Source: a virus. From it: a stretch of 64,000 nucleotides of DNA. Shown in pieces: positions 1,751-49,146 of the stretch; position 1 is the stretch's first letter; every line of letters starts with the position of its first letter. The stretch covers positions 55,920 to 119,919 of the IMG/VR virus record IMGVR_UViG_3300012953_000017; one strand, given 5' to 3'. The notes under the pieces were generated by a model. The model saw nothing but the letters and a program-made list of their open reading frames with translations, searched no databases and was not told the origin of the DNA. Position numbers and translations under genes: made by a program.

Positions 1751-2392
1751 TTGATAGTGCAAGAAAATCGTCCTGACAACGAAGAAGTCTTTAACGCTCT
1801 GACACATGGGGTTGGCGCGATTTTGGCTTTGGTTGGCGGAGTTTTTTTAATTGGACAATCTTGGGAAATAGGGCCCTGGCACTTTGCTGGGGCTTTTTTG
1901 TATTCAGTTTCTCTTTTTTCAACTTTTTGTGCGTCAGCTTTTTACCATATCTCAACAGATCCTTTAATAAAGCATAGGTACAGAGTTCTGGACCATTCAT
2001 CCATTTACTTGGCAATAGCAGGGAGTTACTCTCCTATACTTCTAGTAAGTCTAATGGACAATTGGGGACTGCTATATTGTGTTGTAGTGTGGGTGTTGGC
2101 AATTGCAGGAATTCTGTACAAGTCTAAATACACAGGAAAGCATGAGGAATATTCACTCGGAACTTATCTAATGATGGGGTGGATAGGGCTCTTGATTGTG
2201 CATGACATTATAGAAACAATACCTAGCGCAGGATTATATTGGCTTTTAGCAGGCGGCATTATCTACACATCCGGGGCTTATTTTTATTACAAAGACGATA
2301 AAAGATGGTACCACACCATATGGCATTTTTTTGTACTAGGCGGCAGTATGTGTCACTATATTTTGGTCTCTAAGTACATTATACAACCTTAG
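1751..2392 (+). CDS. hemolysin III / PAQR (TrhA/YqfA-like) membrane protein
   Basis: EEVFNALTH, SAFYH, LDHSSIYLAIAGSYSP and HTIWHFFV motifs; about 7 hydrophobic segments. Confidence 0.92.
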   Translation: MIVQENRPDNEEVFNALTHGVGAILALVGGVFLIGQSWEIGPWHFAGAFLYSVSLFSTFCASAFYHISTDPLIKHRYRVLDHSSIYLAIAGSYSPILLVSLMDNWGLLYCVVVWVLAIAGILYKSKYTGKHEEYSLGTYLMMGWIGLLIVHDIIETIPSAGLYWLLAGGIIYTSGAYFYYKDDKRWYHTIWHFFVLGGSMCHYILVSKYIIQP

Positions 2393-3170
2393 TCAGTCCC
2401 ATTTTTTCAATGTATCTGGAAGTGTGAGAATCCATCATTCTCGACTTATACACACCTAATTCCTCTTCAGTAGCGTCTAAGGCGTTCCTGGCAAGATATT
2501 TTTCAACATAAACAGAAAGTGTATTTATAAATTTTTCCAGATTGTCTTCATTAACATTGTCTTCGAGGTATGCGATATTTTCTTCCACTCGAGCGTCTAT
2601 TTCCATTGGACTACTCATGTGTGTATAAAGATCCGCATTAGTCACATCATCAAGTGGGTACCCGTATATCACACGCTGAATAGAATGTTGCATTTCATGA
2701 GCTAGTGCTGCTCTTATCTCCATGGGGAGTGTCGTCAAAAACGGCTTAAGATCTCTTAAATCTTTCGGCATATGCAGAATTATTTCTATTATTCCCTCAT
2801 CTTCAAAATCATCGCTGTGAAGATATCCTGCATCAACGTCAGAATGATCAGCACTTTTGATTAAAAAATGAAACTCTACGTCTGGTAGAGCGTCAAAGTA
2901 CTCGCCTTTGGGCTCCGGTAATTTTTGATTATTTTCTGAAGAAATTAAGTCTGTATAGATAAAATCAATTGTGTCATAAACAGCTTGTGAGTCAATTGAG
3001 CCTTTATTTAAATTAATCGAATTAACAATGGCACTCACAATGGGGTATGCGATTTGAGATGCTGCAGACCTCAGATCAAATCTTTGCTGAATCTGACTAG
3101 AAGAAGACTCATAAATTAGCCTTTCTTCTGTTTGATCGCTGTCGTTACTGTTTAAAATTGTGTCATTCAT
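2379..3170 (-). CDS. putative zincin metallopeptidase-like protein
   Basis: AHEMQH (HExxH) plus downstream PMEIDA glutamate motif. Confidence 0.55.
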   Translation of the reverse strand: MNDTILNSNDSDQTEERLIYESSSSQIQQRFDLRSAASQIAYPIVSAIVNSINLNKGSIDSQAVYDTIDFIYTDLISSENNQKLPEPKGEYFDALPDVEFHFLIKSADHSDVDAGYLHSDDFEDEGIIEIILHMPKDLRDLKPFLTTLPMEIRAALAHEMQHSIQRVIYGYPLDDVTNADLYTHMSSPMEIDARVEENIAYLEDNVNEDNLEKFINTLSVYVEKYLARNALDATEEELGVYKSRMMDSHTSRYIEKMGLTKVV

Positions 3171-3188
3171 AACACATATAAATATGCG

Positions 3189-3575
3189 CTAGTAGCCTGT
3201 GTTAAGACGGTCGTGAATAACTTCATCCTTTTTGCGATATGCGTCAAAAAGCTCATCAGCTGTAACGCCAGTAAGAACTAATAAGGACAAAAAATAGTTA
3301 AAAGCGTCAACAATTTCTTCTAGAAACTCTTCTCTATCAAATTCGTCTACTTCGGTCTTCTTGTGGGGTTTCCAGTTTTTTAAATGCTGAAGTGCTTCAA
3401 ACATTTCTTCGACACCTTTCAAAGCAGTATCTCTTAACACTTGCTGAGACTTCTTTTGTGTCAAAGAGACAGGCCATTCTGGGTATATGTCTGGGTTTGC
3501 CTTACTAATTTCTACCATAAATGATTCACGCAGGCGAAACATTTCAGACAGCTTATCTTTATTACTCAGACTCAT
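3189..3575 (-). CDS. all-alpha NTP pyrophosphatase (dimeric dUTPase / T4 gp56 dCTPase / MazG superfamily)
   Basis: VEEMFEA...WKPHK...LEEIVDAFNY metal-binding motifs; GAGGAG SD before ATG 3575. Confidence 0.85.
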   Translation of the reverse strand: MSLSNKDKLSEMFRLRESFMVEISKANPDIYPEWPVSLTQKKSQQVLRDTALKGVEEMFEALQHLKNWKPHKKTEVDEFDREEFLEEIVDAFNYFLSLLVLTGVTADELFDAYRKKDEVIHDRLNTGY

Positions 3576-3795
3576 TTGTCTCCTCAACAAGTTCTTGTAC
3601 CTCAGAAATCATAGCTTCTAAATTGTTATTAAAAGTCTTTTCATACTCTGATTCTAGGTCAAGAACACCTTCATTACTTACAAACTTAATAAGTCGTAAG
3701 TTATCAGTGATGTCTGTCCCAGTTAATATTGCAACTTGTAATACTTTGGCAATTTGTGCAATTGCAGAATCTGATAGCTTGTAGCAGTCAAACAT
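3562..3795 (-). CDS. hypothetical protein
   Basis: AAGGAG SD before ATG 3795; coupled to neighbours. Confidence 0.7.
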   Translation of the reverse strand: MFDCYKLSDSAIAQIAKVLQVAILTGTDITDNLRLIKFVSNEGVLDLESEYEKTFNNNLEAMISEVQELVEETNESE

Positions 3796-3812
3796 ATTAT
3801 TCTCCTTTTTTT

Positions 3813-4619
3813 TTATTTCTGAATTTTTGGTACCCAATGTGTTGTCCTTCCATCAGGTGTCTTTTCTTTAACAACCTCATTACCTTCAGGGTCGTTCTTT
3901 TGATTATATACCAGGAACCTCTGTGCGTATTGGCCCAATGTTCCGTTAAAATTTTCGTATGTTCTTATTGTAGCACCGCCTGACCGAAAGCTTTCTCTCA
4001 ATATTTTTTTAATTGCTGAGTTAAGTGATGACAAATCTTTGTCAGAAAGAGAGTCAACTGTCCTGTGTGGTGATATCTTGGACAGCCACAAAGAGTCTGC
4101 TTTTACATAGTTTCCGACGCCAGCCACCACTGACTGGTTCATTATAGCTTTAGTGATAGGCCACTTAGACTTCTTTCTAATGGCTTGAAAAAACACTTCA
4201 TCTTTTACATCAGTGGCTAGCATATCCGGCCCTAATGCCTTGAGTTTTTCTAACAAATAATGTTTTCCTCTGACTATTTTAACAGTGCCAAAATTTCTTT
4301 GATCGTTGAAGTACACCTTACTTTTATCGTCAAAACAAAACTCGACTCTAGAATGCTTTTTTTTATTAGGTGACCAATGGCCGGTCATTCCTAGCGTGTT
4401 CCAAATATAGTGATCATTTTTTAGCATCCAGTATAAAAACTTGCCATGCACACCTACACCGGTGACTTTTGCCGGCAGCGTACCTACAGATTCTAGAAGT
4501 CCTGGAATTGGCTTTTTCGTATATCTGCCGCTTAGCACATTTATGCTTTTTAAAGTCTTTGCGGAGACAAATTCAGACAAGTCTAATCCGTATCTTCTTA
4601 CTTCAGGTCCTTCAGGCAC
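3813..4619 (-). CDS. mutM: Fpg/Nei family DNA glycosylase/AP lyase (zincless-finger type)
   Basis: N-terminal PEGPEV, HGKFL, LGMTG, DQRNFG, LGPD, H2TH motif AGVGNYV; C-terminal GRTTHW without Cys zinc ligands. Confidence 0.93.
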   Translation of the reverse strand: MPEGPEVRRYGLDLSEFVSAKTLKSINVLSGRYTKKPIPGLLESVGTLPAKVTGVGVHGKFLYWMLKNDHYIWNTLGMTGHWSPNKKKHSRVEFCFDDKSKVYFNDQRNFGTVKIVRGKHYLLEKLKALGPDMLATDVKDEVFFQAIRKKSKWPITKAIMNQSVVAGVGNYVKADSLWLSKISPHRTVDSLSDKDLSSLNSAIKKILRESFRSGGATIRTYENFNGTLGQYAQRFLVYNQKNDPEGNEVVKEKTPDGRTTHWVPKIQK

Positions 4620-5031
4620 AGTTTTCCTCCAGCCAGTCTCGATATTTATTCAAGGCATGATCGTTAGGGCGTACATTTTTCCAGTCACCTACACAGAAAA
4701 CTCTCCACGCATCCTCAGCGTACTTTCCGCATCCGTAAAGCTCTTTAGGCGATGACCACTCCTTCTCAACGTATTCTCTAGAGAATCTCCGAAGGGTCTC
4801 TGTACGTCTCTTCCACATTCCTAATGGTTTTATAAGGCTTTGCAAATCGTTAACATCTGCGTCCTTCATAGAATCTGCTGTGGGATACTTACGAAAAAGC
4901 TTCTCGTACACTTTGTCAACTTGTTTTCTAGAAGTTTGATTATGAAGAAGACACGCCACTAGTATTTTCCACTCATTAGGCCACAAATCTTCTTGCAGCA
5001 TTCCGACTGGTGATCGAGGTGGTCTCCACAT
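4612..5031 (-). CDS. MBD4-like HhH-GPD mismatch DNA glycosylase (T:G/U:G), stand-alone catalytic domain
   Basis: WRPPRSP...LQE...WKILVAC..N.TS...KYP...IKPLG...ELYGCGKYAEDAWRVFC...P.DH.LNKY.DWL follows the MBD4 glycosylase domain end to end. Confidence 0.88.
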   Translation of the reverse strand: MWRPPRSPVGMLQEDLWPNEWKILVACLLHNQTSRKQVDKVYEKLFRKYPTADSMKDADVNDLQSLIKPLGMWKRRTETLRRFSREYVEKEWSSPKELYGCGKYAEDAWRVFCVGDWKNVRPNDHALNKYRDWLEENCA

Positions 5032-5085
5032 GCAGAGTCTCCTTTTATAAACTTGTTATATTATAAAAAGAGATCTTAAGATGTA

Positions 5086-5388
5086 TTACTTGAAAACTCG
5101 CTCTTTGGCAGTGTCAAAAAGCTCTTTCATAAAAGATTTCTTTAGTTTGAGTAACCTATCAAATTTGACTTTATTTCTAGCGTCTGTGTAGAGTGCAGTG
5201 GGCTTTTTAATCTGGCCATCAATAAGCTGATCGCTAAAGTCATAAAATTTAGACTTAGGGCTTCGAGGTGGCTTAGCTTCGGCATCTGTTGGTGCCGCAC
5301 ACATTCCTATGCAAAATGCTATAATGCACGACATTATCATGGTCATGATTGATGAGTGTCTTATAAATCTTCTTACACCAGGAAGCAT
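5086..5388 (-). CDS. secreted GltF/CglF-like (adventurous gliding motility) protein
   Basis: Signal peptide ending AEA; YDFSDQLIDGQIKKP...YTDAR.KVKF..L...KSF resembles the CglF/GltF core pattern DFxDxxIxGxxxKP...AR (recalled, not searched). Confidence 0.65.
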   Translation of the reverse strand: MLPGVRRFIRHSSIMTMIMSCIIAFCIGMCAAPTDAEAKPPRSPKSKFYDFSDQLIDGQIKKPTALYTDARNKVKFDRLLKLKKSFMKELFDTAKERVFK

Positions 5389-5404
5389 ACTGTCTAAGTA
5401 TGCA

Positions 5405-5707
5405 CTAAGCTTGTCCTGGTTTCATCGCGGCAAGAATTTTAATCTCAGCCAGTTTCCTGTCCATCATTTGACGAAACTCTTCAGAATGATTTGCAATTTC
5501 AGCTGATCGAATTTCTTCAATCATGTCCCAAACAGAATCGTTTTCATCTGTTAGTTCTCTTATTTCTTTTATGCAAAACTTTAATGATTCTTCAAGCATA
5601 GCCAATCGAAAGTTAGCATCGTGCTCTGGCGAAGGTTTTTCTAAGACTGACTCTATTAGAACAAGTTGCTCTTCTACAAGTTGTGATCTAGTAAGTTTTT
5701 TTGTCAT
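5405..5707 (-). CDS. hypothetical coiled-coil protein
   Basis: ORF abutting upstream stop; helical composition. Confidence 0.65.
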   Translation of the reverse strand: MTKKLTRSQLVEEQLVLIESVLEKPSPEHDANFRLAMLEESLKFCIKEIRELTDENDSVWDMIEEIRSAEIANHSEEFRQMMDRKLAEIKILAAMKPGQA

Positions 5708-5708
5708 G

Positions 5709-6518
5709 TTATTTATTATATTCGACGACACGAACTCTTATAACTGGAATATGATCATCAGGCGTCTTATCCATAACGCCGACAAATTTGCATTCTTCAG
5801 GAACTACATACACTACAAACTCTAGATCGTCTAAATGCATTAAGCACTGAGAAGTTGAACGCATATTGTCTGTTGTGCGCATCATGTTGTAGTTGCTTCC
5901 TTTATCAAAATTTTGCTTTGTTAAAGTTGGCATTATTTTGTTATGGTCATCAATATCAGAAAGCTCCATTTCTGCTGTAGCTTTTCTTATTTTTGATGAT
6001 AGGTAATCATCAGGTTTTCTGTCTGGAGTATAACCCGCACCATCATGGTCTTGACCATGATTTGTCCTTACATCAAACCCTGTAGAAGGGTCTAGCTTTT
6101 TTATAATTGGGTTGTGTTTACTAGTCATCTCAATGCTGTACATTGACTTATTGTTTCCCGCGAAGGTGTGCCCTTTAATTCCATCTCTATAGGAAACTAA
6201 TGATTTTATACAGTCTGAAAGTGTTTCTTGTTCGAGTGCATGAATCATTCTAGGACCATCGTCTGACTGAAGCTTTCCTTTTACAGCCTTTTCGTCTTCA
6301 CCCACGAGTAATGCAGCGTTTATCACTCCAATTCCCTTCTCGTTCATGCCTTCCATGTAGTTAGTATACAGATCGTGTAGGTATACAACTTCCATTCCAT
6401 TTCTTATCTCTCTTACTAGTCTGAGCTTTGGAACATAGTTTCTGTCTCTAGTTTTACCTAGAACATTGCCTCCTGAAATTTGGCCACCTACAATTATACA
6501 TTCGCGCAAAGGTTTCAA
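5709..6518 (-). CDS. Ntn-hydrolase family protein (Cys nucleophile; C45/C59-like)
   Basis: CIIVG near the N-terminus, GKTRD, EGMNEKGIGV and RTNH motifs typical of Cys-Ntn hydrolases; TTG start with GGAG SD. Confidence 0.75.
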   Translation of the reverse strand: MKPLRECIIVGGQISGGNVLGKTRDRNYVPKLRLVREIRNGMEVVYLHDLYTNYMEGMNEKGIGVINAALLVGEDEKAVKGKLQSDDGPRMIHALEQETLSDCIKSLVSYRDGIKGHTFAGNNKSMYSIEMTSKHNPIIKKLDPSTGFDVRTNHGQDHDGAGYTPDRKPDDYLSSKIRKATAEMELSDIDDHNKIMPTLTKQNFDKGSNYNMMRTTDNMRSTSQCLMHLDDLEFVVYVVPEECKFVGVMDKTPDDHIPVIRVRVVEYNK

Positions 6519-6530
6519 TTTTTTCTCCAG

Positions 6531-8486
6531 CTATGACATTAGGTAAATATAATTTTGATTTACGGTACACGCAACTCTAAAACCACAGATCATGTCATGA
6601 AACTCGACTAAAGCATTAATATCTCTTCTGGTTGGTTCATACATGTGATAAACGAGCGACTCGTTTTTAGAAAACTTCTTCTTAAACCACCCTACTAATT
6701 TTTTACCTGCATCAATTCCTTTTTCCCACACAGCTTTTATTCCGGTCCAGAAAAAGCCTAGTGCTTTTTTAGCCATAGTGCTTATTAGACCTACAGTGTA
6801 TTTAAAGAATTTGTCTTTTTGCTGTGCTTGCCACTCTTCATCCTTGTCTAAAAATTTAGAAGCGGCCCAAATACACCCTTTTGCTACACAATAGGCAACT
6901 ACTAAAGCTAACAGAACTTTACCTATGGCAAGCCACATACCTGCACTCACACCCATCAAAGTTCCGCCAGCCCAAGTGCTTTGGACGCCGGTTGCACTGG
7001 CCATCATGTGTGTCATGGCACCTCCGACGCCGCTGACAGAAGTTGAGGCAGGCATGCCCATTGTCGCGAGCAAAGAAGGTGTAGTTATCGTTGCAGATGC
7101 GCCGGCGCCGAACAAATGAGCATATGCTGCAGCCCCAAAAGAACCAATAGTTCCGGCTCCAACTGCAAACATGCCTATTGTTCTAGAAAGTCTATCCTTT
7201 ATGCTTCCTTTACCTCCAGAAAGATCTTCAATCGCAGCTTCTAGTTTATCTTGATCTGACTCCAGCTCGGCTATTTTTTCCTGATTTTCAGCTATTTCTT
7301 TAATAGCATCATCAAAATTATCTGCTTGTATGCCGATTCCTTTTAAGCCTGCCATAGCTGTTTCGGCGGCGCCGTCAGCATTGGAGACTTTGCCCTGTAT
7401 TTCTTCAGCGCCGCTTTTTATTTCGCCTTCAGCAGAGGCCATGCCTTCTTCTGTAGGCATGAATTCATCATCAAATATACTCTTGTCAGACTGCTGCGCG
7501 TCGATACCATCGCCTTCTAAAGTTTCAGTCTCTATGCCTACATCAGCAAGGTCAATCTGATTAGGCTTCTGATTACCACCTTTTTCTGATGCACCTTTTG
7601 CTGCTTTGCCAATGTCACCTTTTTGCTCACTAGAAGGAAGATAGCCTACATTTCCTGATTGTAGACTAAAACCGTTTTTTTGTGCGTATGCAGAGCAAAA
7701 GTCTAGAACCTGAGCCGGCTCTCCTTCTACACCTGCGTCAGATAATTTTTGTGCTATGGCAGACGCTAACTGCGCTACATCTCCTGGTGTGACTGGTTTT
7801 GCAGTGTTTTCTACGTCTTCGAACTCTGGAATGACATTCTTTAGGCTCATGGCAAAACCTTTCATCATCCCTACACCCTCGAGCGCAGAATTAACTTGAG
7901 GTTGATATTTTTCCATTTCTTCTGCCATAGCTTGTGTCGCTGCTGCATCTTTAGCAGCGGAGGCGTCTTCCATTAATAATTTCCACACTGCATCGGATTT
8001 GCATCGTTCATTTACATTTTTCTGTGACGGGAAAGCAGGCACGCCTTCAAGCTCTTGAATTTTAGCTGCAGCACCGGACAAAATTTCTTTGGAAGTTTTG
8101 ACAGCAACTTTCTTGACATATTCTCTGCCCTTATCAGTCTGTGGCTTTATTGCAGTCCATTTTATTTTTTCATCTTTGGTGTCTTTAGAAAGCCCTAGGT
8201 CTTTGCGAGAGACTTGCCCTCCAGATACGTCTCGCTCTACTTCATTTGAAATAAAATCAGTCGTTTGTGTTTCGTAAGTTTGTGTTGCGTTATCTAGTTC
8301 TACACCGAAGAGAGATAAAACTGAAGTGAAAAGACCTTTGATAAAATCAAGTATTCCTTCATCTACTTTTTTAATAGAGGATCGGGATCGAGCATTAAAG
8401 CTCGATTTTAGAATAGTCTCTATAATTACCTGTTCTTTTGAAAGGCCATAGACTGAATTAAATTTTCTCGTTCTTTGTTTTCTCAT
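6531..8486 (-). CDS. large hypothetical protein with C-terminal Gly/Ala-rich hydrophobic helices (candidate virion internal/ejection protein)
   Basis: 651-aa ORF; acidic coiled coil followed by hydrophobic segments; ATACTTA motif upstream at 8530-8536. Confidence 0.6.
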   Translation of the reverse strand: MRKQRTRKFNSVYGLSKEQVIIETILKSSFNARSRSSIKKVDEGILDFIKGLFTSVLSLFGVELDNATQTYETQTTDFISNEVERDVSGGQVSRKDLGLSKDTKDEKIKWTAIKPQTDKGREYVKKVAVKTSKEILSGAAAKIQELEGVPAFPSQKNVNERCKSDAVWKLLMEDASAAKDAAATQAMAEEMEKYQPQVNSALEGVGMMKGFAMSLKNVIPEFEDVENTAKPVTPGDVAQLASAIAQKLSDAGVEGEPAQVLDFCSAYAQKNGFSLQSGNVGYLPSSEQKGDIGKAAKGASEKGGNQKPNQIDLADVGIETETLEGDGIDAQQSDKSIFDDEFMPTEEGMASAEGEIKSGAEEIQGKVSNADGAAETAMAGLKGIGIQADNFDDAIKEIAENQEKIAELESDQDKLEAAIEDLSGGKGSIKDRLSRTIGMFAVGAGTIGSFGAAAYAHLFGAGASATITTPSLLATMGMPASTSVSGVGGAMTHMMASATGVQSTWAGGTLMGVSAGMWLAIGKVLLALVVAYCVAKGCIWAASKFLDKDEEWQAQQKDKFFKYTVGLISTMAKKALGFFWTGIKAVWEKGIDAGKKLVGWFKKKFSKNESLVYHMYEPTRRDINALVEFHDMICGFRVACTVNQNYIYLMS

Positions 8487-8503
8487 AAGTTTCTTTTACT
8501 TCT

Positions 8504-9328
8504 TTAAAGACTAGTCTTTATATGTATGTTAAGTATCTTCTTCGGAGTAGCAATGTACTCATTCCATAAACTAGTCTTTACACTTCCGTTACAAGACTCT
8601 AACTCATAACATATGTTTGAATTATCGCCGCCTGGGTAACCTAGTCTGTGTAAATTAAGTGCCCTTCTCTTGTTGTCGACTGCCATTGATTTTATATCGC
8701 TTCGAAAACCCGCTCGGACATTACCTAGAAGGTGCACTATAATATTAGATTCAGGCCTAAAAAAAGGCCTGACTGCTACAGTAAAAGTAGATATATCAAA
8801 AGGATTACCTGTTTCCATTGAAGCTTCGAGTCTATCTAAGCCTTCTTTCGACGTGTAATGAAGCAACTCTTTTGGATTATTTGTAGACCCATAAAGCTGT
8901 GTGGTAAATTCTTCGTCTATCAACACATACGGTTCCATGTCACCTCTGGAATAAAAATATGCAAATCTTAGACTTCGAATATCTGAAAAATAAGAAGCAA
9001 ACTGCCTCTCAAATGACCACAATCTGTGGTTTACGAAGTCTTCAATAAAGTCCAGAACATTCTTTCTAGTTAATAGATCCCACCTGTCAACTTCCGTGGA
9101 TAGCTGGTACCCAAAAAACTCAGAAAGCTGCCCAACAAATCTTTCAAAGTCTTCTATTCTGCAAAAAGACGTGTGCTTACAACTAATTTCTCCGCCACGG
9201 GTGTCCATTCCTATGGTCTGAAGGTCTAAGAGATAAGTTGCCATCTCTTCCCACTCATTAAGTGTTTTGAACGCAGACTCAGGCTTAATGTAGCCTCTTA
9301 CTTTTGGGTGATCAGTGAGATTTTTCAT
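8504..9328 (-). CDS. hypothetical protein, possible ADP-ribosyltransferase-fold C-terminal domain
   Basis: LLHYTS...DISTF...WNEYIA spacing resembles ART core strands. Confidence 0.45.
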   Translation of the reverse strand: MKNLTDHPKVRGYIKPESAFKTLNEWEEMATYLLDLQTIGMDTRGGEISCKHTSFCRIEDFERFVGQLSEFFGYQLSTEVDRWDLLTRKNVLDFIEDFVNHRLWSFERQFASYFSDIRSLRFAYFYSRGDMEPYVLIDEEFTTQLYGSTNNPKELLHYTSKEGLDRLEASMETGNPFDISTFTVAVRPFFRPESNIIVHLLGNVRAGFRSDIKSMAVDNKRRALNLHRLGYPGGDNSNICYELESCNGSVKTSLWNEYIATPKKILNIHIKTSL

Positions 9329-9583
9329 CTATATCGGCCCTAGTTGATCCATTGTCTTTGTAAGGACGTCACCAGGATCCCAAGTAGGGCCGTCATTTGT
9401 ACATTCATAACTTACAGACTTTCCCATATCTTTAGGTAAACTTTTAACCAGAACAACAACACCTTCGCTGCCATAATGTGTGCAGTTAGGGTTTGTATTC
9501 ACCACGCTGTCTCCGCTGACAGGTTCGTATGTGTGACTTACAAAACTCTCCAACAACACTCTTCTTACAAATTCTCTCAGCAT
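9329..9583 (-). CDS. hypothetical protein with N-terminal LREFVRRVLLE motif
   Basis: ORF abutting neighbours. Confidence 0.7.
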   Translation of the reverse strand: MLREFVRRVLLESFVSHTYEPVSGDSVVNTNPNCTHYGSEGVVVLVKSLPKDMGKSVSYECTNDGPTWDPGDVLTKTMDQLGPI

Positions 9584-9961
9584 TTATTTTCTCACGTAGT
9601 GGCGCCAATTATACCATGGGCGTATGCTTAAGTAATTAGGATACTTGTCATGTGTATACGCTTCTCGCTCAAAAGGATTTTCATAATACGCTTTTTTTCC
9701 GCTTCTGCATCTTATTAATCCTATTAACCAGAACACCCCGTAAAGAATCCATTGCCCTACAAAAAGAAGCTCAATTTGTTGTTGGTAATGAATTGTTTCG
9801 TGCCTTCTAGTTTTTTCGGACAGCTCTCCTCTACACCACACCCAAAATGCAAAACTTAAAGCCCAAATCTCTATTGGTGATATTTTTGAAAGCCACACTG
9901 GAATCTTGCTATTTTCAAACTCCCATGGCTTTCGAGACTTTAACCATTTAGAAACTCTCAT
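9584..9961 (-). CDS. small HExxH metallopeptidase-like protein
   Basis: RHETIH plus NPFEREAY motifs. Confidence 0.65.
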   Translation of the reverse strand: MRVSKWLKSRKPWEFENSKIPVWLSKISPIEIWALSFAFWVWCRGELSEKTRRHETIHYQQQIELLFVGQWILYGVFWLIGLIRCRSGKKAYYENPFEREAYTHDKYPNYLSIRPWYNWRHYVRK

Positions 9962-9962
9962 T

Positions 9963-10241
9963 TTACCTCCCGTACTTGGCTTCGTACCTCTCTCGACCTG
10001 CCTTTGAAAATGCCGGATTTACAAATACAGCATATATTCTCGGACTGCCAGGGAAAGTCGATACTATTTCTACTTTTCTCTCTACTTCCCAGCCGGCGGC
10101 TCTATATTTTTCAACTAGTGTTTTCATGTAAGGACCCCATGTTGGATCGATGTCAACTATTTTTCCATTTACACATTCATTGTCAGTCCATGTAGACTCC
10201 AAAATGTCATTGATTATATCAACAATATCTTTACGTTTCAA
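9963..10241 (-). CDS. hypothetical protein
   Basis: TTG start with GAGGA SD. Confidence 0.65.
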   Translation of the reverse strand: MKRKDIVDIINDILESTWTDNECVNGKIVDIDPTWGPYMKTLVEKYRAAGWEVERKVEIVSTFPGSPRIYAVFVNPAFSKAGRERYEAKYGR

Positions 10242-10954
10242 TTTAATTCCTCGCTGTCTTTATTAATTAGGTGCACTAACTCTTTCCAATGTGCTGGATT
10301 AATACCGGGTGGAGGACCACCAAGACTTAAAGTGTCTAGAGCATCCTTGTACTTCTGCTTTTGTTTTGGGCTAGGGGCACTTTGTAGATTATGCAACATA
10401 TCTGATAGTTTTATTTTTAGCACGTCTGGTTTGTTTGCTATTGATGCAACATAATCAGAATAATCAGTACCTTTGGTATGTGTAAGTGACCTTACAATAT
10501 CCAGTGCTCTTAAACCTATGTCCGGCTGTCCAAAAGATCCTGCGATCAAAGATTCCATTTCTTCGCTGGATTTAACATTTCCTTGCGAAAGTGCATCTTC
10601 TAGAGCATCATGGAGCAAAGCAGCTGCGCACAAAACAGGCTCATCAGGATAGTATGCGTAGACAATATTTGCCACTTCAACTGGATGCACAAGATACGGC
10701 TCGCCTGTTCTTCTTTTTTGTCCTAAGTGTGCCATTTGAGCAGTGGCCAGAGCGTCAGCTACATCGTCATTTACATCGCCACAGACTTCATTAATGTGTT
10801 GTAAAATTATGGATCTTACATAGTTTCTAAGGATGTTTTCAGATGTGCCTTGAGAATTCTTTAGTTTCTTAATTTGGCAAGAGATATCATTTTCTCGAAC
10901 TTGTCTTAACGAACCAGAAATATAATATCTTATGTATTCCTTGAGCACCTTCAT
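10238..10954 (-). CDS. HD-domain (p)ppGpp hydrolase-like protein (small alarmone hydrolase, SpoT/Mesh1 type) with N-terminal extension
   Basis: AHLGQKRRTGEPYLVHP, AALLHDALED and IKLSDMLHNL motifs; no synthetase domain. Confidence 0.88.
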   Translation of the reverse strand: MKVLKEYIRYYISGSLRQVRENDISCQIKKLKNSQGTSENILRNYVRSIILQHINEVCGDVNDDVADALATAQMAHLGQKRRTGEPYLVHPVEVANIVYAYYPDEPVLCAAALLHDALEDALSQGNVKSSEEMESLIAGSFGQPDIGLRALDIVRSLTHTKGTDYSDYVASIANKPDVLKIKLSDMLHNLQSAPSPKQKQKYKDALDTLSLGGPPPGINPAHWKELVHLINKDSEELN

Positions 10955-10993
10955 AGGGACAACACCACCCTATGTTAAGTATTTTCTAGTCGT

Positions 10994-11707
10994 CTAGAAA
11001 TCTTTGTTATCTCTAAACGCTTTAACTGTTATAGGCCAAACTTCTTCTGCTATCGTCAATAAAGCTTGAGCTACTTGTTGAATTTCCCACTGAGCGCCCT
11101 CGTGAATCCTAAGCTCTATGAATTTCATTAAGTTGCTAAGGTTGCAAGTACCATAGTACTCAGTGTAGAGGTTCTGGGGCAGGACTCCTCGAGCTTGCTC
11201 TCTGCAGACACCTGATTCTAATAGATTTTCATAAAGGTTTAGTGAAGATTTGTGGTGTGATCGAACAGCAGCGCTAGCGCTGAGAACGCCTCCATCTTCG
11301 TACCGGTACAAAACAGGATCATCGGTCTTGTTAGTGCTGGCCTGTCGATTTGATTGATGCTGAGATCTAAAAACACTTGGTTCATAGAATCTTAAGTCTA
11401 CTTCAGTGTATCTTCGACTTATCTCATTATAAGCCCAAGTTCTATGGCGATGGTGCTGACTACGAATGAAAAGAGGCACCACGAAACGACAAGTGAGAAC
11501 GTTGTGCTCCAAAGTGGAAGTGTGGCGATGCTTAATAAGATAATCAATAAGTCTTTCATCTTTGTCATCTAGAATATCCTTTTGCTTTCCAAAACTAACT
11601 CTGGCTGCATTAACAACAGTTAAGTCATGCCCCATATGACTAACATAATCAACGCGACCGATGCCGTCTGAATAGAGGTCTATAGACTTTATCTTAGTTT
11701 CTGTCAT
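10994..11707 (-). CDS. thyX: FAD-dependent thymidylate synthase
   Basis: VNAARVSF, HTSTLEH, RHRxxxxNExSRRY signature, REQARGVLP, AQWEI. Confidence 0.96.
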   Translation of the reverse strand: MTETKIKSIDLYSDGIGRVDYVSHMGHDLTVVNAARVSFGKQKDILDDKDERLIDYLIKHRHTSTLEHNVLTCRFVVPLFIRSQHHRHRTWAYNEISRRYTEVDLRFYEPSVFRSQHQSNRQASTNKTDDPVLYRYEDGGVLSASAAVRSHHKSSLNLYENLLESGVCREQARGVLPQNLYTEYYGTCNLSNLMKFIELRIHEGAQWEIQQVAQALLTIAEEVWPITVKAFRDNKDF

Positions 11708-12101
11708 CCTTTACACCCTTACCATACCACCGGGCGTTTCTTCCTCGCACATCGTAATGAGTAAATGTTGTGTAAAGCCCAACGCCGCCTTTCATCATCT
11801 TACCTTCTTTAATAAGATCAACAATAACAGCTTTTACTTCAGCAGGTGTCATTCCTTTGACTTTAATGTCGGCAGCATTTGCGGTCATATGCTGACTTCT
11901 TCTGGCACCTCCGATTCTGCGATTATACTTTGGGGAGCGGTATCCGCTAATGACTCTAATAGGTTTTCCTATTTCATCTCTTAGTACTTGAAGATTTTCG
12001 CATAGAAGAGATACGTTATCCATTAACTCTTCAGGAACGTCAGTACCGTCTTTACACCTGAACTCTGATAAAGAGAAGTTTTGTGTTATTTTATAACTCA
12101 T
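11694..12101 (-). CDS. peptidase M15A family (candidate endolysin)
   Basis: NFSLSEFRCK, SGYRSP..N..IGGA..SQH..ANAADI and FTHYDVR motifs. Confidence 0.88.
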   Translation of the reverse strand: MSYKITQNFSLSEFRCKDGTDVPEELMDNVSLLCENLQVLRDEIGKPIRVISGYRSPKYNRRIGGARRSQHMTANAADIKVKGMTPAEVKAVIVDLIKEGKMMKGGVGLYTTFTHYDVRGRNARWYGKGVKDDRN

Positions 12102-23260: not shown

Positions 23261-26200
23261 TTATTCTTGTGATCCTGCATCATGATCAGCGATGACCGTA
23301 AGAGCTTTCTGCACGTTGCCTATTAACCCTTCGTACTTACCGTACGTGTCTAACTGAATCATTTTTACATTTGTAGTAAATGTTCCTTGCCCTATGGAGT
23401 GATCTATACCTGTCACTGCGTATACGTTGTCAGCACTAGTTCCTGTTCCAAAATCAACAAAAAATTGTTGTCCAAAGTTAAATAGTGGACACCCAAATGT
23501 CTCCAGGGTCATTTCTGTCGGTGATATTCTCATTGGTACGCCTGCATCTCTAGAGCCTTGTGGATCTTGCGGGCTTCCAAAACCTTGACGCTGCATATTA
23601 ATTGTTGCCAACTGAGGATTGTTTATAGATTGAACAGAAGCTTTAATAACACCTGAAGCAGAGCCTCCGTATATTATTGTTGGCATTGTTGTAGAAACCC
23701 ATTTTTTAAGTGCCGGGAACCCTCCTTTTATGCGAAAGTTAGGTTGTGGGAACTCTTCTACAGACAATTCATTTGCAGTTGCACCGGTATTTATCGGCAG
23801 TGCCTCTAAAAGACCATCGGAAACTGCAGACTTTAGATGTTCTTTAAACATTTTTTGATGCTCAGAGTTTGCTGAGCCTTCTCTTGCTACTTTGGCTGCA
23901 TCCTTTGATATTACACCAATAGAATCTTTTGTAGCAGCTTCGAGCATCTGGCCTACGGTCTCATACGACGTTGCTTGACTGTCATATATGTGCATTCTTA
24001 AAATGGATCTCTCTCCTCCTGATGGTTGTGAGCCCGGGTCACCTTGGTCTCCAGATTCAGCCTGTGTTGGGTCTGGCCTTTGAGGAACACATTCCACCCT
24101 AACTTGAATTTGAGGTTTTTTAAACTGCTGAGTTCCAGCCTCACCGTAAGCATGCGCCAAAATTTCTTGCTTCTTGTTAAAAAGCTTAGTTTCGTCTTCA
24201 AACTTTTTTGAGACTTTTGCTTTCTTTAAATCTTCCTTATCTCTTTTGGAGTAGATTTTAGTCATTCCGTAGCCCGGGGCACCAGGATAGCTTAAAAAAG
24301 CAGAATTCATAAAACTCATAAACTTTCTAATGGGTAAGTTCGCTGTCGTTTTAGTTTCTTCTTTAAACATAGTTTCAAAGTCGTCAATAGCAATTGGAAA
24401 CTGTGCGATATTATAGTCTTTCATATAAGAAGCTTTGGCATTAAAGCAATAGAAAATAAATTGCATTTCATCATACTTTCCAGTAGAAGATATTGGGAGA
24501 CCTAAAAACACAGAGAAAATTTTTCCTAAGGACACGTATTTTCTTTTCTTTTTTTCCTTGTCAATTTTTAAATCTTTTGTGTCCAAATTACAAAGCCACG
24601 GGTCTTCAGTTTCTTTTAGCAACTTCATCTTACGTTGAACTTCTTGCTGAATAGTGTCTTTAAGTGATGCCATAGCACCACCTTTGCCGTCGGCTTTAGG
24701 ACCATAAAGAGTTGTCAAGCTATCTCTAAGCTGGCCCATATCAGAACCTGAATCCTTTCCTCTATTTGTTTGTATAAATTTTTTAATTTTTTTCATCGTC
24801 TCCTTGTCTAAAGAGACTGCTCTAGAAGTTGAAGAAGCTGCTCCTAAAAAGTCAAATCCTTTAGTTTGAGCAGATCCACCTCCAGCTCCTGAAACTTTTC
24901 TTCTAAGTAGAGATATCGCACTTGTTAGCTTGTTAATGACATCGACTTGCTCTTCAACTTTGCCGCCGCGGCCTATGTTGACAGTATGCATGTCATTTCC
25001 GCCCATCATTGCAAGCTTTAAATCTATTTCTACTTGTCCTTCCTCTGTAAAAGAAAAAGAAGAATTTACAACTTGATACTTTTCTTTGCACCTTAAGTTT
25101 CCTAGGAACCATCCGAACGGGCTTCCGTGTATTCGAATGCCTTCTGCGTGTATTGCATTATCAGGATGAGACCACCCGTACTCTATCAGTAACTGGACCA
25201 TACCAAACATGTCAGGTTTTACCAAGGGAGCAATCTCAGCAAGTCTAGACCTATCATGTAAGGTTATTTTAAGACTGGCAGATTTATATGCCATCATTCC
25301 TGTAGAAGGTGCAACATTAATCGAGAGATCACCTAGTGTCATAAAAGGACGAAACCTATCAACAATTGGTGCTGCTCTTTTTCCTCCTGAAGTTAGCTTT
25401 AGGCCGTCATCAGGTTCTCCTTCAATCTTTGTATTGACATCCTGCCAAGCTGGGTCATCGTACTCATAGTGTATTTCATCGCCCGGGACAAGAGTCTGGG
25501 GCGAAGTAAACAATTCCATTCCAGCACTAGCAATTCCTGGAGCAACAGCTTTGGCCTTTGCATCCGCATTTTGTGCGTCAGTTGCAGACGGATCAGCCTG
25601 AGCCTGCCCACTTTGATAGTCTTTTAAAATTTCTGAATCTACTGCGCCGGCGAGAGTGTAATTTGCAGACCCCATCTTCACAGCTGCATTTCCTAAAATA
25701 AACTGCCCTAGAGACAAAGCTTGAATTCTTCCGTATTTATTTTCTGCATCTGCTGCCAGAGGTGCTACTTTACTTATGACACTTATATCAATGACAGGAA
25801 CACATCTAGACATCTCTATAGACGGAATGCAATTTAAAAATAAAGTTATCGCTCCAGTGTCCCTAGACGATATATTGAAATTCACAGGAAAAACCTGATA
25901 GCAAGAGATTGCAGGTGCATGAGGTGCCCTAGGACTCGTAGGTTTTGAGTTAACGGGTGCTTCGTTGTCTTCAGAAGCATCCGGGGATGCGATGCCTAAC
26001 ATCCTGTTCATTGAATATACATTCTGACCTTCAGGAAGACCTGTGCCTTGATCGTCCATTTTTGACTTATCGTGAATAATAGGCGCCTTGTCATCAGAAG
26101 AGAAGTCGTCATGGCCGTCGTATACGACTCGCAACATTTTTCTTGCGTCTTCCGCAGTCATTCCATCATCTGTTTCTTGGCCTGATGCCCAAGTCTCATA

Positions 26201-45877: not shown

Positions 45878-48800
45878 TTACTCAAACGATACCCCACTGT
45901 TCGTAACAATAAAGTCAATCGCGATAAACTCAACAGCGCGTGTTGGTACCACAACTATTCGACCATTCATTTTGTTGGACTCGACATCCTCTTGAGAGTT
46001 GTTTGTGTCATCACAGATCACTCGGAACTGCTCGATTCCGGCCTGTGCCTGGACTAGAGCTAAGAGTGGTGTGACTTGAGCCACAAATCTGGCCCTCGTT
46101 GCAGGTGTGTTCTGCTCGAAGAGAAGTCTATTAGCAACGCCTACAATTAGTCTCTTTACTTCCAGTAACATTCGTCGAACGTTAACACGATCCAGAGCTG
46201 ACTTGGCCATCTGTAATGTTTTCTGTCCGAATATTACAAACCCTCCGTTCGGGAAGTTGGCAATTGGATTAATTCTTGCATCGTAGAGTGTATCTCTATC
46301 TTCTGCAGTAAGTCGAGTACCTGTATTTCTTACGAAATCTAGAGCACCTCGATTGAATCCTGCCGGAGCGAACCAAGGGAATGACACACGATCATTGTAT
46401 GCCAGCGCGCTAAGTCCTGCTACTGATCCCGGAACCTTTACGTTCCTATTATTTACAGGATCTTCTATAAACACATCCGGGAAGTAAGTTGCAGAGTAGT
46501 TGTTATCGATAGCTCTCGATTCAAACTGCTCAGATGTCTCTCTAACATTAGGTTTGAGCGACGAGTCTCCATAAAGACGCTCTGAAGAGCCTGCGGTGTT
46601 GACGCCGAAGTTTACTAGGTCCATCAAGTAGATTGCCATGCTGTAGTCTTTTACTCTGTCTAGAGCAAAGTCTGTCACAAAAGCATCTCTAATTCCTGGA
46701 ATTGCCAGTATGTTGATGTTTGATGATATCGGATCAGTTATGATTCTTGAAGCAACCCGGTATGCATTCACAACATTGTTTTTAACACCTGCACCTGATG
46801 GATTGTTTGTTCCGTCTCCAATTCCGATATTAGGATCACCATCAACAGCCAGTCCGCCTGTATCGGAAGACGCGGCTTTGTCGGTCATGTGATGGGAGTC
46901 TTTGTCCAATATGTTTAGACCGTCAAAACCTCCATGGAAGATAGTCGTAAACTTATTGTAATCCGTAAATCGGTTAAACACAGTTGACGCGGAATGCACA
47001 AGAGTCGCCATTGTAATTCTAGATCTGGTGGCATCTCCCGGATCTGTGATTGTGTACTTGCTGCTTTCAGGATTACCATTTCTAAGGTAACATGCTTCAA
47101 GCATATGCTCTTTTGCGGTACCTGAAACATTAGTTATGTGATCACTGACAAGCACGTTAGATAGCGCCACCCTTGCAAGAGTGAATTTGTTGTTATTGAA
47201 TACGTCTGCACCAGTACCTGTAACTAGAGTATCTAGCTTCTTGATGCCCTGGAACTTAGTGTAGGCCTTTACTAGAGGATTAACTGCAGTTCCCATGTTT
47301 GTATTTAAGATAGCGTTATCCAGTGTCCCCATTCCGGATGAAGACGACATTGCGGTTCTCTTAACTTTAACACCCCAGTAGAATCTTGAATCTACTCTCT
47401 CGTCGTCTCCAGGATGTCCCATTATTGTATTGGTCTTTGATACATCACCGCGGGTGACCTTAAATCTATACGGTAGCGGCGGAACAATAGAGCCGGTCAA
47501 AGCATTTCCGCTATATGCACTTAAAATAAGATTTGAACCAGAACCTATTAGGCGGCCAGTTGCGGGAGCATCGTCACCTAAAGCTGAGCCGTCTGGAGCT
47601 TTTAGCTGGGTAGACGTGTCTGTAAGAGTATTGCTTGTCTTAAGAATTTCGATTCCTCTAAAGCCGAATGGCAATGATTCTTCAGGAACTTCTTGATTTT
47701 CAACATCTCTGTTCATTTTGACGCGAACTCTGGCTGACATATTAGGATATTTTCCGGAAATTACCAGTCTTCTTTCTTCGGCATCATCAGCATCAAAATT
47801 GTAAGATACCTTTTTATCTCCAATGAGTCGTGCAACATATCTTTCACTCTTTGGATTCAGATTACAATCTGGGTATCTCTCAAGTATTTCTGTGTCTAGG
47901 TCACTGTCAGCAAATCTTCGGACCTGTACTTCAAAAGTTCCAAATTTATCATTTGGATCACTTGATTTTCTAATGTTTGCAATGGAGATCTTAAACTTGT
48001 CATTACCCCACTGGCCGTCGGATATCGTTTCAAAGTTAAAGAGATCATACTCTTTGGCACCAAAAGGCTGAGAAATGATGCTTGGAGTTTTAGGAGTCGT
48101 GTATCTGGTGTTAAATTTACCAAATAATTCTCTAAAGACAGTGGTCCCGTCTCCGCCGTCGGCTGTAATACCATCAGAACCGGAACAAATCATCACAGAA
48201 CCCACGCCGCCTGCGACGACTGGTGCTAATTCATGCTCAACAGCAAAGTCCAGATAAAGAAGGTGTTCTTCCTGTTGGAATTTATGTGGGTCTGTATTAA
48301 GAATCTTGCCGATGTACTGCTGATCGTTTGGATCAAGAGAGGCAGTGTAAATTCTTAGCCCTGCAAATTCATCATTAGAAAAGTCAGCACCGGAAGTCGA
48401 AGAAAGAATCAGCTTAAAGTGATTTCTTGCGTCTGCGCCACCAAGGCCTAGATCTCCTAATGTAGCAACATCGTCTTCATAAATATGAGCCTGGGATGGG
48501 TGTATGTCTTCGTAGTTCTGGTTAAAGTCCATCACAGCAAAGCGAGAACCAGTAGTGGTCATTAAAACGCCGCGAACAAGAGCTACGTCTTTACGACTAC
48601 CTCCTCGCTCTCCAAAGGAGTCATTATCATGGAAGATAGGGAATCCTCTGTCAGCATGTTCAGCAATAGAGTGCGATGCAACGAGAAACTGTACACAGCC
48701 TTTATGCTTTGTGAGACCATCGGTTCCTGCAACGCCTCCGGCATGGAAGGCCTTTGCGACGGGTGACAACTCGAAGCCGGCATTTTGAACCGTTCCTTCA

Positions 48801-49105
48801 GTCCTCGTGGTCTCAATGTGTGAAGTCGTTTCGTTGGTGCCTGCACCTAACGTTCTGACGTATGTTACTGCCGTACGGTTTTTTAGAAATTCTCTAACCG
48901 CGTACGGCCCAAATCTATCAGGATCCAAAGATCCAAATCTTGTTTCGAAGTCTGCCAGTGATCCTATTGTGATCGGCACAAAGGCCGGTCCTTTTATAGA
49001 TGTACCAACAATACCTGCAGGAACGCCTAGCGGGCTAGCCTGTCGTGCAGATAGGTCGATTTCTTTCTCAAAGAATCCTGGTGATCGGAAAGTCTGCTCA
49101 GCCAT
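45878..49105 (-). CDS. tail sheath protein (paralog A)
   Basis: FRSPGFFEKEID; PWFAPAGFNRG, ALDRVNVRR, EFIAIDF. Confidence 0.93.
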   Translation of the reverse strand: MAEQTFRSPGFFEKEIDLSARQASPLGVPAGIVGTSIKGPAFVPITIGSLADFETRFGSLDPDRFGPYAVREFLKNRTAVTYVRTLGAGTNETTSHIETTRTEGTVQNAGFELSPVAKAFHAGGVAGTDGLTKHKGCVQFLVASHSIAEHADRGFPIFHDNDSFGERGGSRKDVALVRGVLMTTTGSRFAVMDFNQNYEDIHPSQAHIYEDDVATLGDLGLGGADARNHFKLILSSTSGADFSNDEFAGLRIYTASLDPNDQQYIGKILNTDPHKFQQEEHLLYLDFAVEHELAPVVAGGVGSVMICSGSDGITADGGDGTTVFRELFGKFNTRYTTPKTPSIISQPFGAKEYDLFNFETISDGQWGNDKFKISIANIRKSSDPNDKFGTFEVQVRRFADSDLDTEILERYPDCNLNPKSERYVARLIGDKKVSYNFDADDAEERRLVISGKYPNMSARVRVKMNRDVENQEVPEESLPFGFRGIEILKTSNTLTDTSTQLKAPDGSALGDDAPATGRLIGSGSNLILSAYSGNALTGSIVPPLPYRFKVTRGDVSKTNTIMGHPGDDERVDSRFYWGVKVKRTAMSSSSGMGTLDNAILNTNMGTAVNPLVKAYTKFQGIKKLDTLVTGTGADVFNNNKFTLARVALSNVLVSDHITNVSGTAKEHMLEACYLRNGNPESSKYTITDPGDATRSRITMATLVHSASTVFNRFTDYNKFTTIFHGGFDGLNILDKDSHHMTDKAASSDTGGLAVDGDPNIGIGDGTNNPSGAGVKNNVVNAYRVASRIITDPISSNINILAIPGIRDAFVTDFALDRVKDYSMAIYLMDLVNFGVNTAGSSERLYGDSSLKPNVRETSEQFESRAIDNNYSATYFPDVFIEDPVNNRNVKVPGSVAGLSALAYNDRVSFPWFAPAGFNRGALDFVRNTGTRLTAEDRDTLYDARINPIANFPNGGFVIFGQKTLQMAKSALDRVNVRRMLLEVKRLIVGVANRLLFEQNTPATRARFVAQVTPLLALVQAQAGIEQFRVICDDTNNSQEDVESNKMNGRIVVVPTRAVEFIAIDFIVTNSGVSFE

Positions 49106-49139
49106 TCAAGTATCTCCTTAGACTCATGTCTTCCTATGA

Positions 49140-49146
49140 TAAGTAT
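49140..49146 (-). promoter_or_regulatory. putative late promoter motif ATACTTA (sheath A)
   Basis: Recurrent motif, intergenic. Confidence 0.6.

Follow-up and report, generated by a model that had tools for sequence, protein, structure and literature searches.

We analyzed a 64,000-nucleotide stretch of viral DNA (hereafter, the window), corresponding to positions 55,920 to 119,919 of the IMG/VR record IMGVR_UViG_3300012953_000017, with a focus on a short open reading frame (ORF) whose product is, almost certainly, an intact and stand-alone member of the MBD4 glycosylase-domain family belonging to a phage clade. The ORF overlaps a second repair gene, nei, which encodes a glycosylase with predicted apurinic/apyrimidinic (AP) lyase activity. 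The elements of this locus are as follows (window coordinates).

5032-5085, minus strand: upstream intergenic spacer, with a Shine-Dalgarno sequence (AAGGAG) at 5039-5044, 7 nt before the glycosylase ATG
4612-5031, minus strand: stand-alone MBD4-type HhH-GPD DNA glycosylase, 139 aa, ATG start
4612-4619, minus strand: 8-nt overlap GTGCCTGA, with the glycosylase stop inside the nei start
3813-4619, minus strand: Fpg/Nei-family glycosylase / AP lyase (nei), 268 aa, GTG start

The glycosylase starts with MWRPPRSP and terminates with DHALNKYRDWLEENCA. An earlier inspection of the window's letters alone (the sequence-only reading) had placed the ORF correctly at 4612-5031 and quoted its product accurately, except for two residues (CA) beyond the quoted end. 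A phmmer search of all Protein Data Bank (PDB) chains matched 15 distinct MBD4 glycosylase-domain sequences (E 2.6e-43 to 1.3e-41), and every MBD4 match, human or mouse, forms one ungapped stretch over query residues 2-137. The next families were far weaker, i.e., MIG (1kea, E 8.1e-4) and endonuclease III (E 2.1e-3). An AlphaFold2 model made from a 16-sequence alignment (mean pLDDT 96.3, pTM 0.91) was compared with the PDB using Foldseek, and the top 16 matches were all MBD4 (TM 0.93-0.97, root-mean-square deviation [rmsd] 0.9-1.1 A, 47-48% identity); MIG came next at TM 0.66, and MIG, Nth, and MutY reached at most 0.67. The likeness to MBD4 is thus real, specific, and far beyond chance, and both searches favor the proposal that this is a true MBD4-family domain rather than an ordinary MutY or Nth. 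Among profile collections, Pfam returned solely the HhH-GPD family PF00730 (E 1.7e-12), PHROGs contained no family at E <= 0.001, and NCBIfam gave just a sub-threshold nth match (50 bits vs a cut-off of 211.7). The methyl-CpG-binding domain (MBD) and its linker are absent, the 139 residues being the catalytic domain alone, and there is no Fe-S motif, the only cysteines being the scattered C27, C101, C113, and C138; both absences had been read correctly from the letters. A megablast search of 3000-12000 against 50,697 phage records found no match, and a sigma-70 promoter/terminator scan of 2300-5500 yielded 12 promoter-like sites against 8.8 +/- 3.4 expected, i.e., no enrichment.

A word-indexed search of 5.8 billion metagenomic proteins uncovered 315 relatives at E <= 1e-5, and the best 120 of these are stand-alone proteins of 131-162 aa with 57-94% identity to the query, many of them from marine surveys. 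Searching 1.84 billion representatives with a hidden Markov model (HMM) gave 2,954 matches at E <= 1e-3, of which 159 reached E <= 1e-30, the best 150 being mostly long proteins in which the domain is C-terminal. Twenty representatives were looked up; those named among the long ones were a haptophyte, a fish, amphioxus, two molluscs, an amoebozoan, a filasterean-like opisthokont, a glaucophyte, a prasinodermophyte, a chlorophyte, and a land plant. In IMG/VR, 68 loci were confirmed out of 100 hits from a pattern scan, vs 10 loci in a single-protein scan. Collectively, the 315 metagenomic proteins and 68 IMG/VR loci represent a large phage clade, and the window's version is no isolated case.

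Deposited phage genomes carry the family rarely: relatives occur in just 17 of 50,697 records, namely, 13 from the Xp12 group, the cyanophage S-TIM54, two from an Aeropyrum virus, and one fecal contig. Two pattern scans of 185,579 prokaryote species genomes gave 23 and 26 pattern hits, none of which was confirmed; these scans used only motifs of the phage clade, which divergent bacterial members could escape. A search for longer relatives produced one 288-aa protein (P0290), whose match ends before the catalytic Asp. In P0290 and in P0195 (204 aa), similarity is lost at residues 105 and 90, respectively, and is followed by unrelated sequence, so these are probably frameshifted or chimeric gene calls and not fusions. 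No published description of a phage or prokaryotic MBD4-type glycosylase was found in the literature searched, in which subscription journals were scarcely covered.

The active site of human MBD4 provides a reference for the phage protein. In the structural account of complexes with T- and 5-hydroxymethyluracil (5hmU, or hmU)-containing DNA, the base pocket is formed by Val448, Gln449, Tyr540, and residues 560-562, Asp560 is the catalytic residue, Arg468 fills the duplex gap left by the flipped base, and the orphan guanine is read by the main-chain carbonyls of Arg468 and Leu506 (PMC3479182). As described there, the protein does not touch the 5-substituent of hmU (PMC3479182), so C5-substituted uracils fit the MBD4 pocket. 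Human numbering equals query numbering plus 436, the sole offset that fits the residue types on the ungapped alignment, and the equivalents are Q13 for Q449, Y104 for Y540, and D124, within PNDHALNKY, for the catalytic D560. The sequence-only reading was right that the catalytic Asp is kept, but the Asp it pointed to, that of GKY..D, is a different one (D107 in GKYAED, human D543).

We aligned 347 family sequences (the query, 67 from IMG/VR, 138 short and as many long sequences of metagenomic or genomic origin, and 3 from named phages), which comprise a phage/stand-alone group (n = 206) and a long, eukaryote-type group (n = 138). Neither the D560 nor the Y540 column varies among the 347; the catalytic Asp is thereby kept in all three named-phage sequences (Xp12, Donnerlittchen, and S-TIM54). 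The Q449 column holds Gln in 201 of 206 phage/stand-alone and 101 of 138 long sequences. At the DNA-insertion loop, the query has Q32 at the position of the human plug residue R468 and R35 at that of G471, and A126 replaces K562. The Arg468 column is dominated by Gln, Leu, and Cys in the phage/stand-alone group (98, 80, and 15 of 206) and by Lys, Arg, and Gln in the long group (71, 42, and 15 of 138), and is thus not invariant in eukaryotes. Arg occupies the Gly471 column in 190 of 206 phage/stand-alone sequences, and Gly does so in 99 of 138 long ones. This Q/R swap is a clade signature of the phage group. The plug residue in Nth and MutY is Gln, and a Gln at this position need not impair function. 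Tyr104 of the GCGKY motif, which we take to be aligned with the lyase Lys of Nth, leads us to predict a monofunctional glycosylase that lacks the HhH Lys nucleophile. MBD4 itself is described as having a non-basic residue in place of the HhH lyase Lys (PMC8307549).

The overlap between the glycosylase and nei is of a kind typical of translational coupling. The Nei product begins with MPEGPEV, its GTG start being set by the family's obligatory Met-Pro-Glu, and contains the Pfam domains PF01149, PF06831 (the H2TH domain), and PF21025. Its C-terminal finger (PF21025) is zincless, with no Cys in the last 50 residues. The match to TIGR00577 is strong (E 1.3e-49), yet at 169 bits it falls below the NCBIfam equivalog cut-off of 203.3; with scores below such cut-offs, the protein is not typical of either Fpg or Nei. 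Its best PDB matches are 3a45, 3a42, 3vk7, and 4nrw (E 8e-45 to 6e-43), which we take to be Mimivirus Nei1 (database title: 'formamidopyrimidine-DNA glycosylase'), and bacterial Fpg/MutM follow at E 2.6e-27, i.e., ~18 orders of magnitude weaker. Human NEIL1 was not among the PDB matches at E <= 1e-5. For both genes of the pair, the nearest solved relatives are of eukaryote or giant-virus type.

Pairing with Nei recurs across the family. Within flanks of up to 8 kb, a Nei homologue was found in 41 of the 68 IMG/VR loci, always downstream and on the same strand (41/41); it is adjacent in 26 (<100 nt between alignments, with gaps of 2-20 nt) and within 2 kb in 38. Among the 27 loci without Nei, 20 extend for 3 kb or more in each direction. 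PF01149 occurs in 18 of the 33 records of at least 64 kb that bear the glycosylase gene and in all three of those that are at least 90% complete. The pair is therefore frequent, co-directional, and often overlapping, although not obligatory, and the suggestion of a conserved unit made from the single overlap holds across the related loci. Given that MBD4 is without the lyase lysine, a lyase in the same transcript is the natural next step, and we infer that the abasic site is handed from the glycosylase to Nei. An AP-endonuclease-independent branch of base excision repair is known to run through NEIL and PNKP. Fpg/Nei homologues are also present in the Bacillus phages SP-15 and SP-10 and their relatives. 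SP-15 and SP-10 are phages with hypermodified thymine, and phage-encoded Fpg/Nei may generally accompany base modification.

The cultured carriers direct attention to cytosine modification, a connection that the sequence-only reading had not drawn and that supplies the likeliest biological role. In Xp12, the distant glycosylase homologue lies directly upstream of genes for a PRA-PH-type nucleoside triphosphate (NTP) pyrophosphatase, a 'thymidylate synthase', dCMP deaminase, and DHFR, and gene order is the same in Donnerlittchen and AXL1. According to the AXL1 paper, 5-methylcytosine (5mC) replaces all cytosine in Xp12 DNA, and AXL1 gp65, an 'ENDO3c' protein, is left without function in the account given there. 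The thymidylate synthase (TS) homologue in the Xp12-group block carries a PYD motif. Among the large (at least 64 kb) MBD4-bearing records, 27 of 33 contain PF00303, and in 25 of the 68 loci a co-oriented TS-family ORF lies within the 8 kb downstream, where its open frame begins ~5 to 7.5 kb past the glycosylase gene start. We aligned 21 phage TS-family sequences (14 distinct ones and, in addition, the sequences from Xp12, Donnerlittchen, S-TIM54, and four records related by RecA) and found Asp in 21/21 at the column of E. coli ThyA Asn177, with the Cys146 column conserved; as a control, E. coli ThyA shows N177 and C146 there. An Asp in the N177 position confers specificity for cytosine nucleotides (T4 gp42 D179, TS N177). 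For two TS representatives, the best solved relatives are CMP 5-hydroxymethylase (E 2e-40) and T4 dCMP hydroxymethylase (E 1.1e-21), and thymidylate synthases scored more weakly against the same two (E 1.3e-23 and 1.3e-12).

The genome to which the window belongs has a kinase/mini-TS fusion at record positions 48391-49299. No Pfam or PDB sequence match was found for the fusion, and its last 65 residues match the profile of the phage TS homologues (hhalign probability 70.5%, E 3.9e-5) over a span that includes the Cys, RSSD, and P-Y-D motifs. Fusion homologues occur in 4 of the 33 records (G002, G004, G026, and G033), all among the 6 that lack PF00303. Of the 33 records, 2 have neither PF00303 nor the fusion; the other 31, like the window's genome, have one of them and never both. 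This distribution suggests that the fusion and the full TS homologue are two alternative routes to the same, or a related, modified cytosine nucleotide.

We also examined 13 further RecA-related records, 7 of which are of at least 70 kb. The MBD4-type gene is present in 3 of them and PF00303 in 4, and the whole lineage seems to carry cytosine-type enzymes. Independent support for the cytosine link is its recurrence in three unrelated phage groups. In addition, the cultured cyanophage S-TIM54 has a distant MBD4-family gene, annotated as hypothetical, and its TS-family gene (L169, OP053362.1 145421-146233) shows Asp (P-L-D) at the E. coli N177 column; S-TIM54 may therefore carry modified cytosine.

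In a 222-row tree built by a quick method, 110 phage/stand-alone rows grouped together (SH-aLRT 80) on a polytomous backbone. A more careful 82-row tree recovered a phage vs pan-eukaryotic split with support of UFBoot 99 / SH-aLRT 92. One side has 37 rows (25 IMG/VR, 9 short, 1 long, Xp12, and the query) and the other has 45 (38 long, 5 short, 1 IMG/VR, and S-TIM54 on a very long branch). The clean separation of the two clans excludes recent capture from one eukaryote. With Xp12 as the outgroup, the eukaryotic clan is nested in a phage grade, with weak backbone support; forcing the 36 phage-clan rows into one clade cost 14.1 log-likelihood units and was not rejected (p-AU 0.228). The expectation that a phage MBD4 would bear on the family's origin is consequently upheld only weakly, the clans being separate and a phage grade and a single phage clade both being acceptable topologies. 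Two IMG/VR loci, L061 and L070, encode a Nei that is 54-56% identical to the window's, together with an MBD4-type gene whose stem is long. In the 82-row tree, from which L070 was collapsed out, L061 groups with the eukaryotic rows; in the 222-row tree the two branch from the polytomous backbone, separately from the phage clade. These loci may be a divergent lineage or a long-branch artifact.

It is conceivable, though on balance we doubt it, that MBD4-type glycosylases were primarily a phage invention for 5mC or 5-hydroxymethylcytosine genomes and that eukaryotes acquired the MBD4 domain once from such phages, before their radiation, perhaps together with the accompanying zincless Nei of NEIL1/Mimivirus type. 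Consistent with such an origin, eukaryotic sequences form one supported clan, the family occurs in three separate phage lineages, eukaryotes lie inside phage diversity when the tree is rooted on the Xp12 type, and the phage-motif pattern scans of prokaryote species genomes confirmed no copy. If true, some of the machinery with which eukaryotes repair deaminated 5mC would descend from phage DNA-modification biology.

Beyond nei, the minus strand of the window continues with the following features.

3562-3837, minus strand: small conserved ORF downstream of nei, 91 aa (the Atlas record runs from residue 15)
3189-3590, minus strand: all-alpha MazG / dimeric-dUTPase-type NTP pyrophosphohydrolase, 133 aa
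457-1395, minus strand: HAD-type phosphatase protein, 312 aa, whose C-terminal two thirds match 'polynucleotide kinase' PHROGs

The ORF at 3562-3837 was matched by tblastn in 38 of the 68 related loci; it has no Pfam or PHROG family, and its Atlas matches are phage hypothetical proteins only. It may be a further part of a glycosylase/Nei/pyrophosphatase block. The product of 3189-3590 is a candidate dCTPase/dUTPase (PF08761, E 3.1e-5; PF01503, E 8.9e-4; phrog_12184, E 1.4e-19). This pyrophosphohydrolase is present in the flank of 27 of the 68 loci and has weak similarity (E 0.009) to the PRA-PH-type pyrophosphatase beside the Xp12 homologue. The ORF at 457-1395 matches phrog_420 (E 1.9e-12) and phrog_415 (E 1.2e-11), has no Pfam match, and is found in 8 of the 68 loci; its product could possibly remove the 3'-phosphate that Nei would leave by beta,delta-elimination. 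We considered this ORF as a homologue of an Xp12 neighbor and rejected it (BLASTP E 1.2). The sole sizeable plus-strand gene in the region, at 1751-2392, encodes a haemolysin-III / PAQR-family membrane protein (Pfam HlyIII, E 2.5e-37) and has a homologue in 4 of the 68 loci.

The window makes up the latter half of a 119,919-bp record rated 42% complete, with genes almost all on one strand. The record encodes a T4-type major head protein (phrog_138, E 7e-75), a baseplate hub, and a single-stranded DNA-binding protein, and its nearest cultured capsids are those of Flavobacterium phage immuto and Microcystis phage Mel-JY01, with huge uncultured phages also near. Further products include DnaE, DnaB, RecA, ClpP, an ATP-dependent ligase, two FEN-type exonucleases, ribonucleotide reductase, thymidine kinase, dCMP deaminase, a canonical and a second, divergent ThyX, a nucleoside deoxyribosyltransferase-family protein, and two NAD-epimerases. 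In the 120-kb fragment, we found no gene for a uracil-DNA glycosylase (UDG), for an AP endonuclease of the Xth or Nfo type, or for a C5 DNA methyltransferase. The source is a tailed, T4-like, uncultured marine phage and not a eukaryotic or giant-virus contig. The second of the FEN-type 5'-3' exonucleases, a paralogue at record positions 25352-26173 (Pfam E 1.1e-22), has counterparts flanking the MBD4-type gene at 24 of the 68 loci (upstream in L005-L008 and L010).

Taking the locus as a whole, we consider it fairly probable that the ORF encodes a monofunctional MBD4-family mismatch pyrimidine glycosylase that repairs deaminated cytosine or modified cytosine opposite G. By analogy with MBD4, its substrates would be T, U, and 5hmU opposite G. 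The enzyme would flip out T, U, or a 5-substituted uracil from its pairing with G and hold the base by Gln13 and Tyr104, while Asp124 would catalyze hydrolysis of the glycosidic bond. The resulting abasic site would pass to the co-translated zincless Nei, whose AP-lyase activity would cut the strand, and phage enzymes, i.e., the candidate HAD 3'-phosphatase, DnaE, the FEN-type exonucleases, and the ATP-dependent ligase, could finish the repair. The purpose would be to guard a phage genome in which cytosines are probably replaced by a C5-modified cytosine, since deamination of the latter would give a T-like or hmU-like base opposite G that is beyond uracil glycosylases. That the DNA of this phage is modified at all is what we infer from the company its glycosylase keeps.

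Several observations weigh against a glycosylase dedicated to modified cytosine and coupled to Nei. The window's genome has no PF00303 gene, and its own cytosine-type enzyme depends on a 65-column profile match of 70% probability; this genome also has a normal dTTP supply in the canonical ThyX, dCMP deaminase, and thymidine kinase. Three of the five large MBD4-negative RecA-related records have PF00303 as well (all five are fragments, 26-67% complete, and were compared for PF00303 only). As the lineage seems to carry cytosine-type enzymes throughout and the records are all fragments, the TS-homologue association is one at the lineage level, and the glycosylase does not discriminate within the lineage. 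Nei is missing from 15 of the 33 large records, including ones that are 75% and 59% complete. The IMG/VR loci are partly near-duplicates, 43 of 67 being left after collapsing at 80% identity. Finally, with the Arg468 plug changed to Gln and Lys562 to Ala, DNA handling may differ from that of MBD4.

Some of these points favor general deamination and mismatch repair, in which the glycosylase would remove U (and T) arising opposite G from ordinary cytosine and replace UDG in a large, slowly replicating phage. MBD4 is reported to excise U opposite G besides T and 5hmU (PMC3458566). The lack of a UDG-family gene in the fragment and of a full-length PF00303 gene in the window's genome, together with the failure of the TS-homologue association to discriminate within the lineage, fits such a role. 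We nevertheless regard it as unlikely, if well worth keeping in view, because three unrelated phage lineages pair the family with Asp-type TS homologues, the glycosylase gene of the Xp12 group lying within that cluster, and because 17 carriers among 50,697 phage records are far too few for a generic function. A role in counter-defense, whereby the enzyme would reverse damage by a host cytosine deaminase or compete with host defense glycosylases or nucleases for lesions, fits the substrate chemistry in general (U or T opposite G), and glycosylase-based host defenses against modified phage DNA have reportedly been published. Yet the locus neighbors are replication and nucleotide-metabolism genes, none of them defense-related, and we hold this role to be quite improbable.

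Quality control of the modification pathway, with wrongly incorporated pyrimidines excised so that the modified base persists, would accord with the presence in the same cluster of an NTP pyrophosphatase, which would police the nucleotide pool, and with the position of the Xp12 homologue in a block of synthesis enzymes. We give this little credence: Gln13 and Tyr104 would read a uracil-type Watson-Crick edge and the main-chain carbonyls of MBD4 read the orphan G, which points to mismatch recognition and not to discrimination between C and modified C. There is similarly slight reason to think that the protein is a catalytically silent DNA-binding reader of mismatches or modified bases. The Arg468-to-Gln and Lys562-to-Ala changes would suit such a reader, but the catalytic Asp and base-reading residues are invariant or nearly so over the 206 phage/stand-alone sequences, and Gln is the commonest residue at the phage plug position (98/206) and occurs in eukaryotic-type sequences too (15/138). 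Recent capture of a eukaryotic MBD4 exon, or contig contamination or chimerism, could be argued from the 47-48% identity to animal MBD4 and is already contradicted, to the point of being barely credible, by the conserved phage synteny, the T4-type head, baseplate hub, DnaE, DnaB, and RecA on the same contig, the stand-alone relatives at 57-94% identity among the matches listed, and the separation of the phage clan from animals, plants, green algae, a glaucophyte, a haptophyte, and an amoebozoan.

In the literature, as far as the sources at hand extend, MBD4 is treated as a eukaryotic enzyme tied to CpG methylation. The present data add a large conserved phage clade of stand-alone MBD4-type enzymes, most carriers of which also encode cytosine-C5-modifying enzymes. 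Phages and eukaryotes would thus face the same problem, in that deamination of 5-substituted cytosines yields bases to which uracil glycosylase is blind, and would use the same fold to meet it. The glycosylase gene can serve as a marker for phages that may carry modified cytosine, and beside it the full TS homologue and the kinase/mini-TS fusion appear as mutually exclusive alternatives. The family also supplies ~140-aa, naturally MBD-free, predicted T:G / hmU:G glycosylases with a different plug loop, for enzymology and sequencing tools, and an opportunity to test where a eukaryotic enzyme of epigenome maintenance came from.

With regard to known systems, MIG (1kea), Nth, and MutY share the HhH-GPD superfamily with the window protein, and MIG, a thermostable T:G glycosylase, also removes T and U opposite G. 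They are proteins of ~220 aa with an Fe-S cluster domain, unlike the 139-aa window protein, and MIG matches it at E 8e-4 and TM 0.66. The window's Nei resembles zincless, NEIL1-type Nei in its Pro-Glu N-terminus, H2TH domain, and Cys-free finger. The locus recalls the NEIL/PNKP branch in that an HAD phosphatase gene lies 2.4 kb downstream of nei and no Xth or Nfo gene was found in the fragment; it differs in that the placement of Nei as the lyase behind a mismatch glycosylase is deduced from the overlap and synteny only.

The closest phage parallels are Xp12 QNN97216.1, AXL1 gp65, and the Donnerlittchen 'endonuclease III', which are small stand-alone HhH-GPD proteins of the same family encoded by siphoviruses known or suspected to carry 5mC. 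They are highly divergent from the window protein (tblastn, 32-38% identity, E 1e-15 to 3e-12). In both settings, a phage-encoded glycosylase has an all-alpha NTP pyrophosphatase among its neighbors, whereas the Xp12 group has no adjacent Nei and keeps the gene in a block with the TS homologue, dCMP deaminase, and DHFR. Among eukaryotic proteins, plant MBD4L (Arabidopsis) is like the phage protein in having an MBD4-type catalytic domain without an MBD, as described in PMC9266487, and is unlike it in having a long N-terminal extension and being nuclear; the sampled plant sequence (Genlisea) lies in the eukaryotic clan of the tree and not in the phage clan. Mammalian MBD4/MED1 (3iho, 6vjw, 4dk9, 4e9e-h, 4evv, 4ew0, and 1ngn) aligns without gaps over 136 residues at 47-48% identity, the model superimposes on it at TM 0.96 with an rmsd of 1.0 A, and the two share the Gln/Tyr pair, the catalytic Asp, the lack of an Fe-S cluster, and a Tyr where we align the lyase Lys of Nth. 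Unlike mammalian MBD4, the window protein is without the methyl-CpG-binding domain and linker, is a phage product whose gene is coupled to nei, and carries Gln at the plug, Arg at the Gly471 position, and Ala at that of Lys562.

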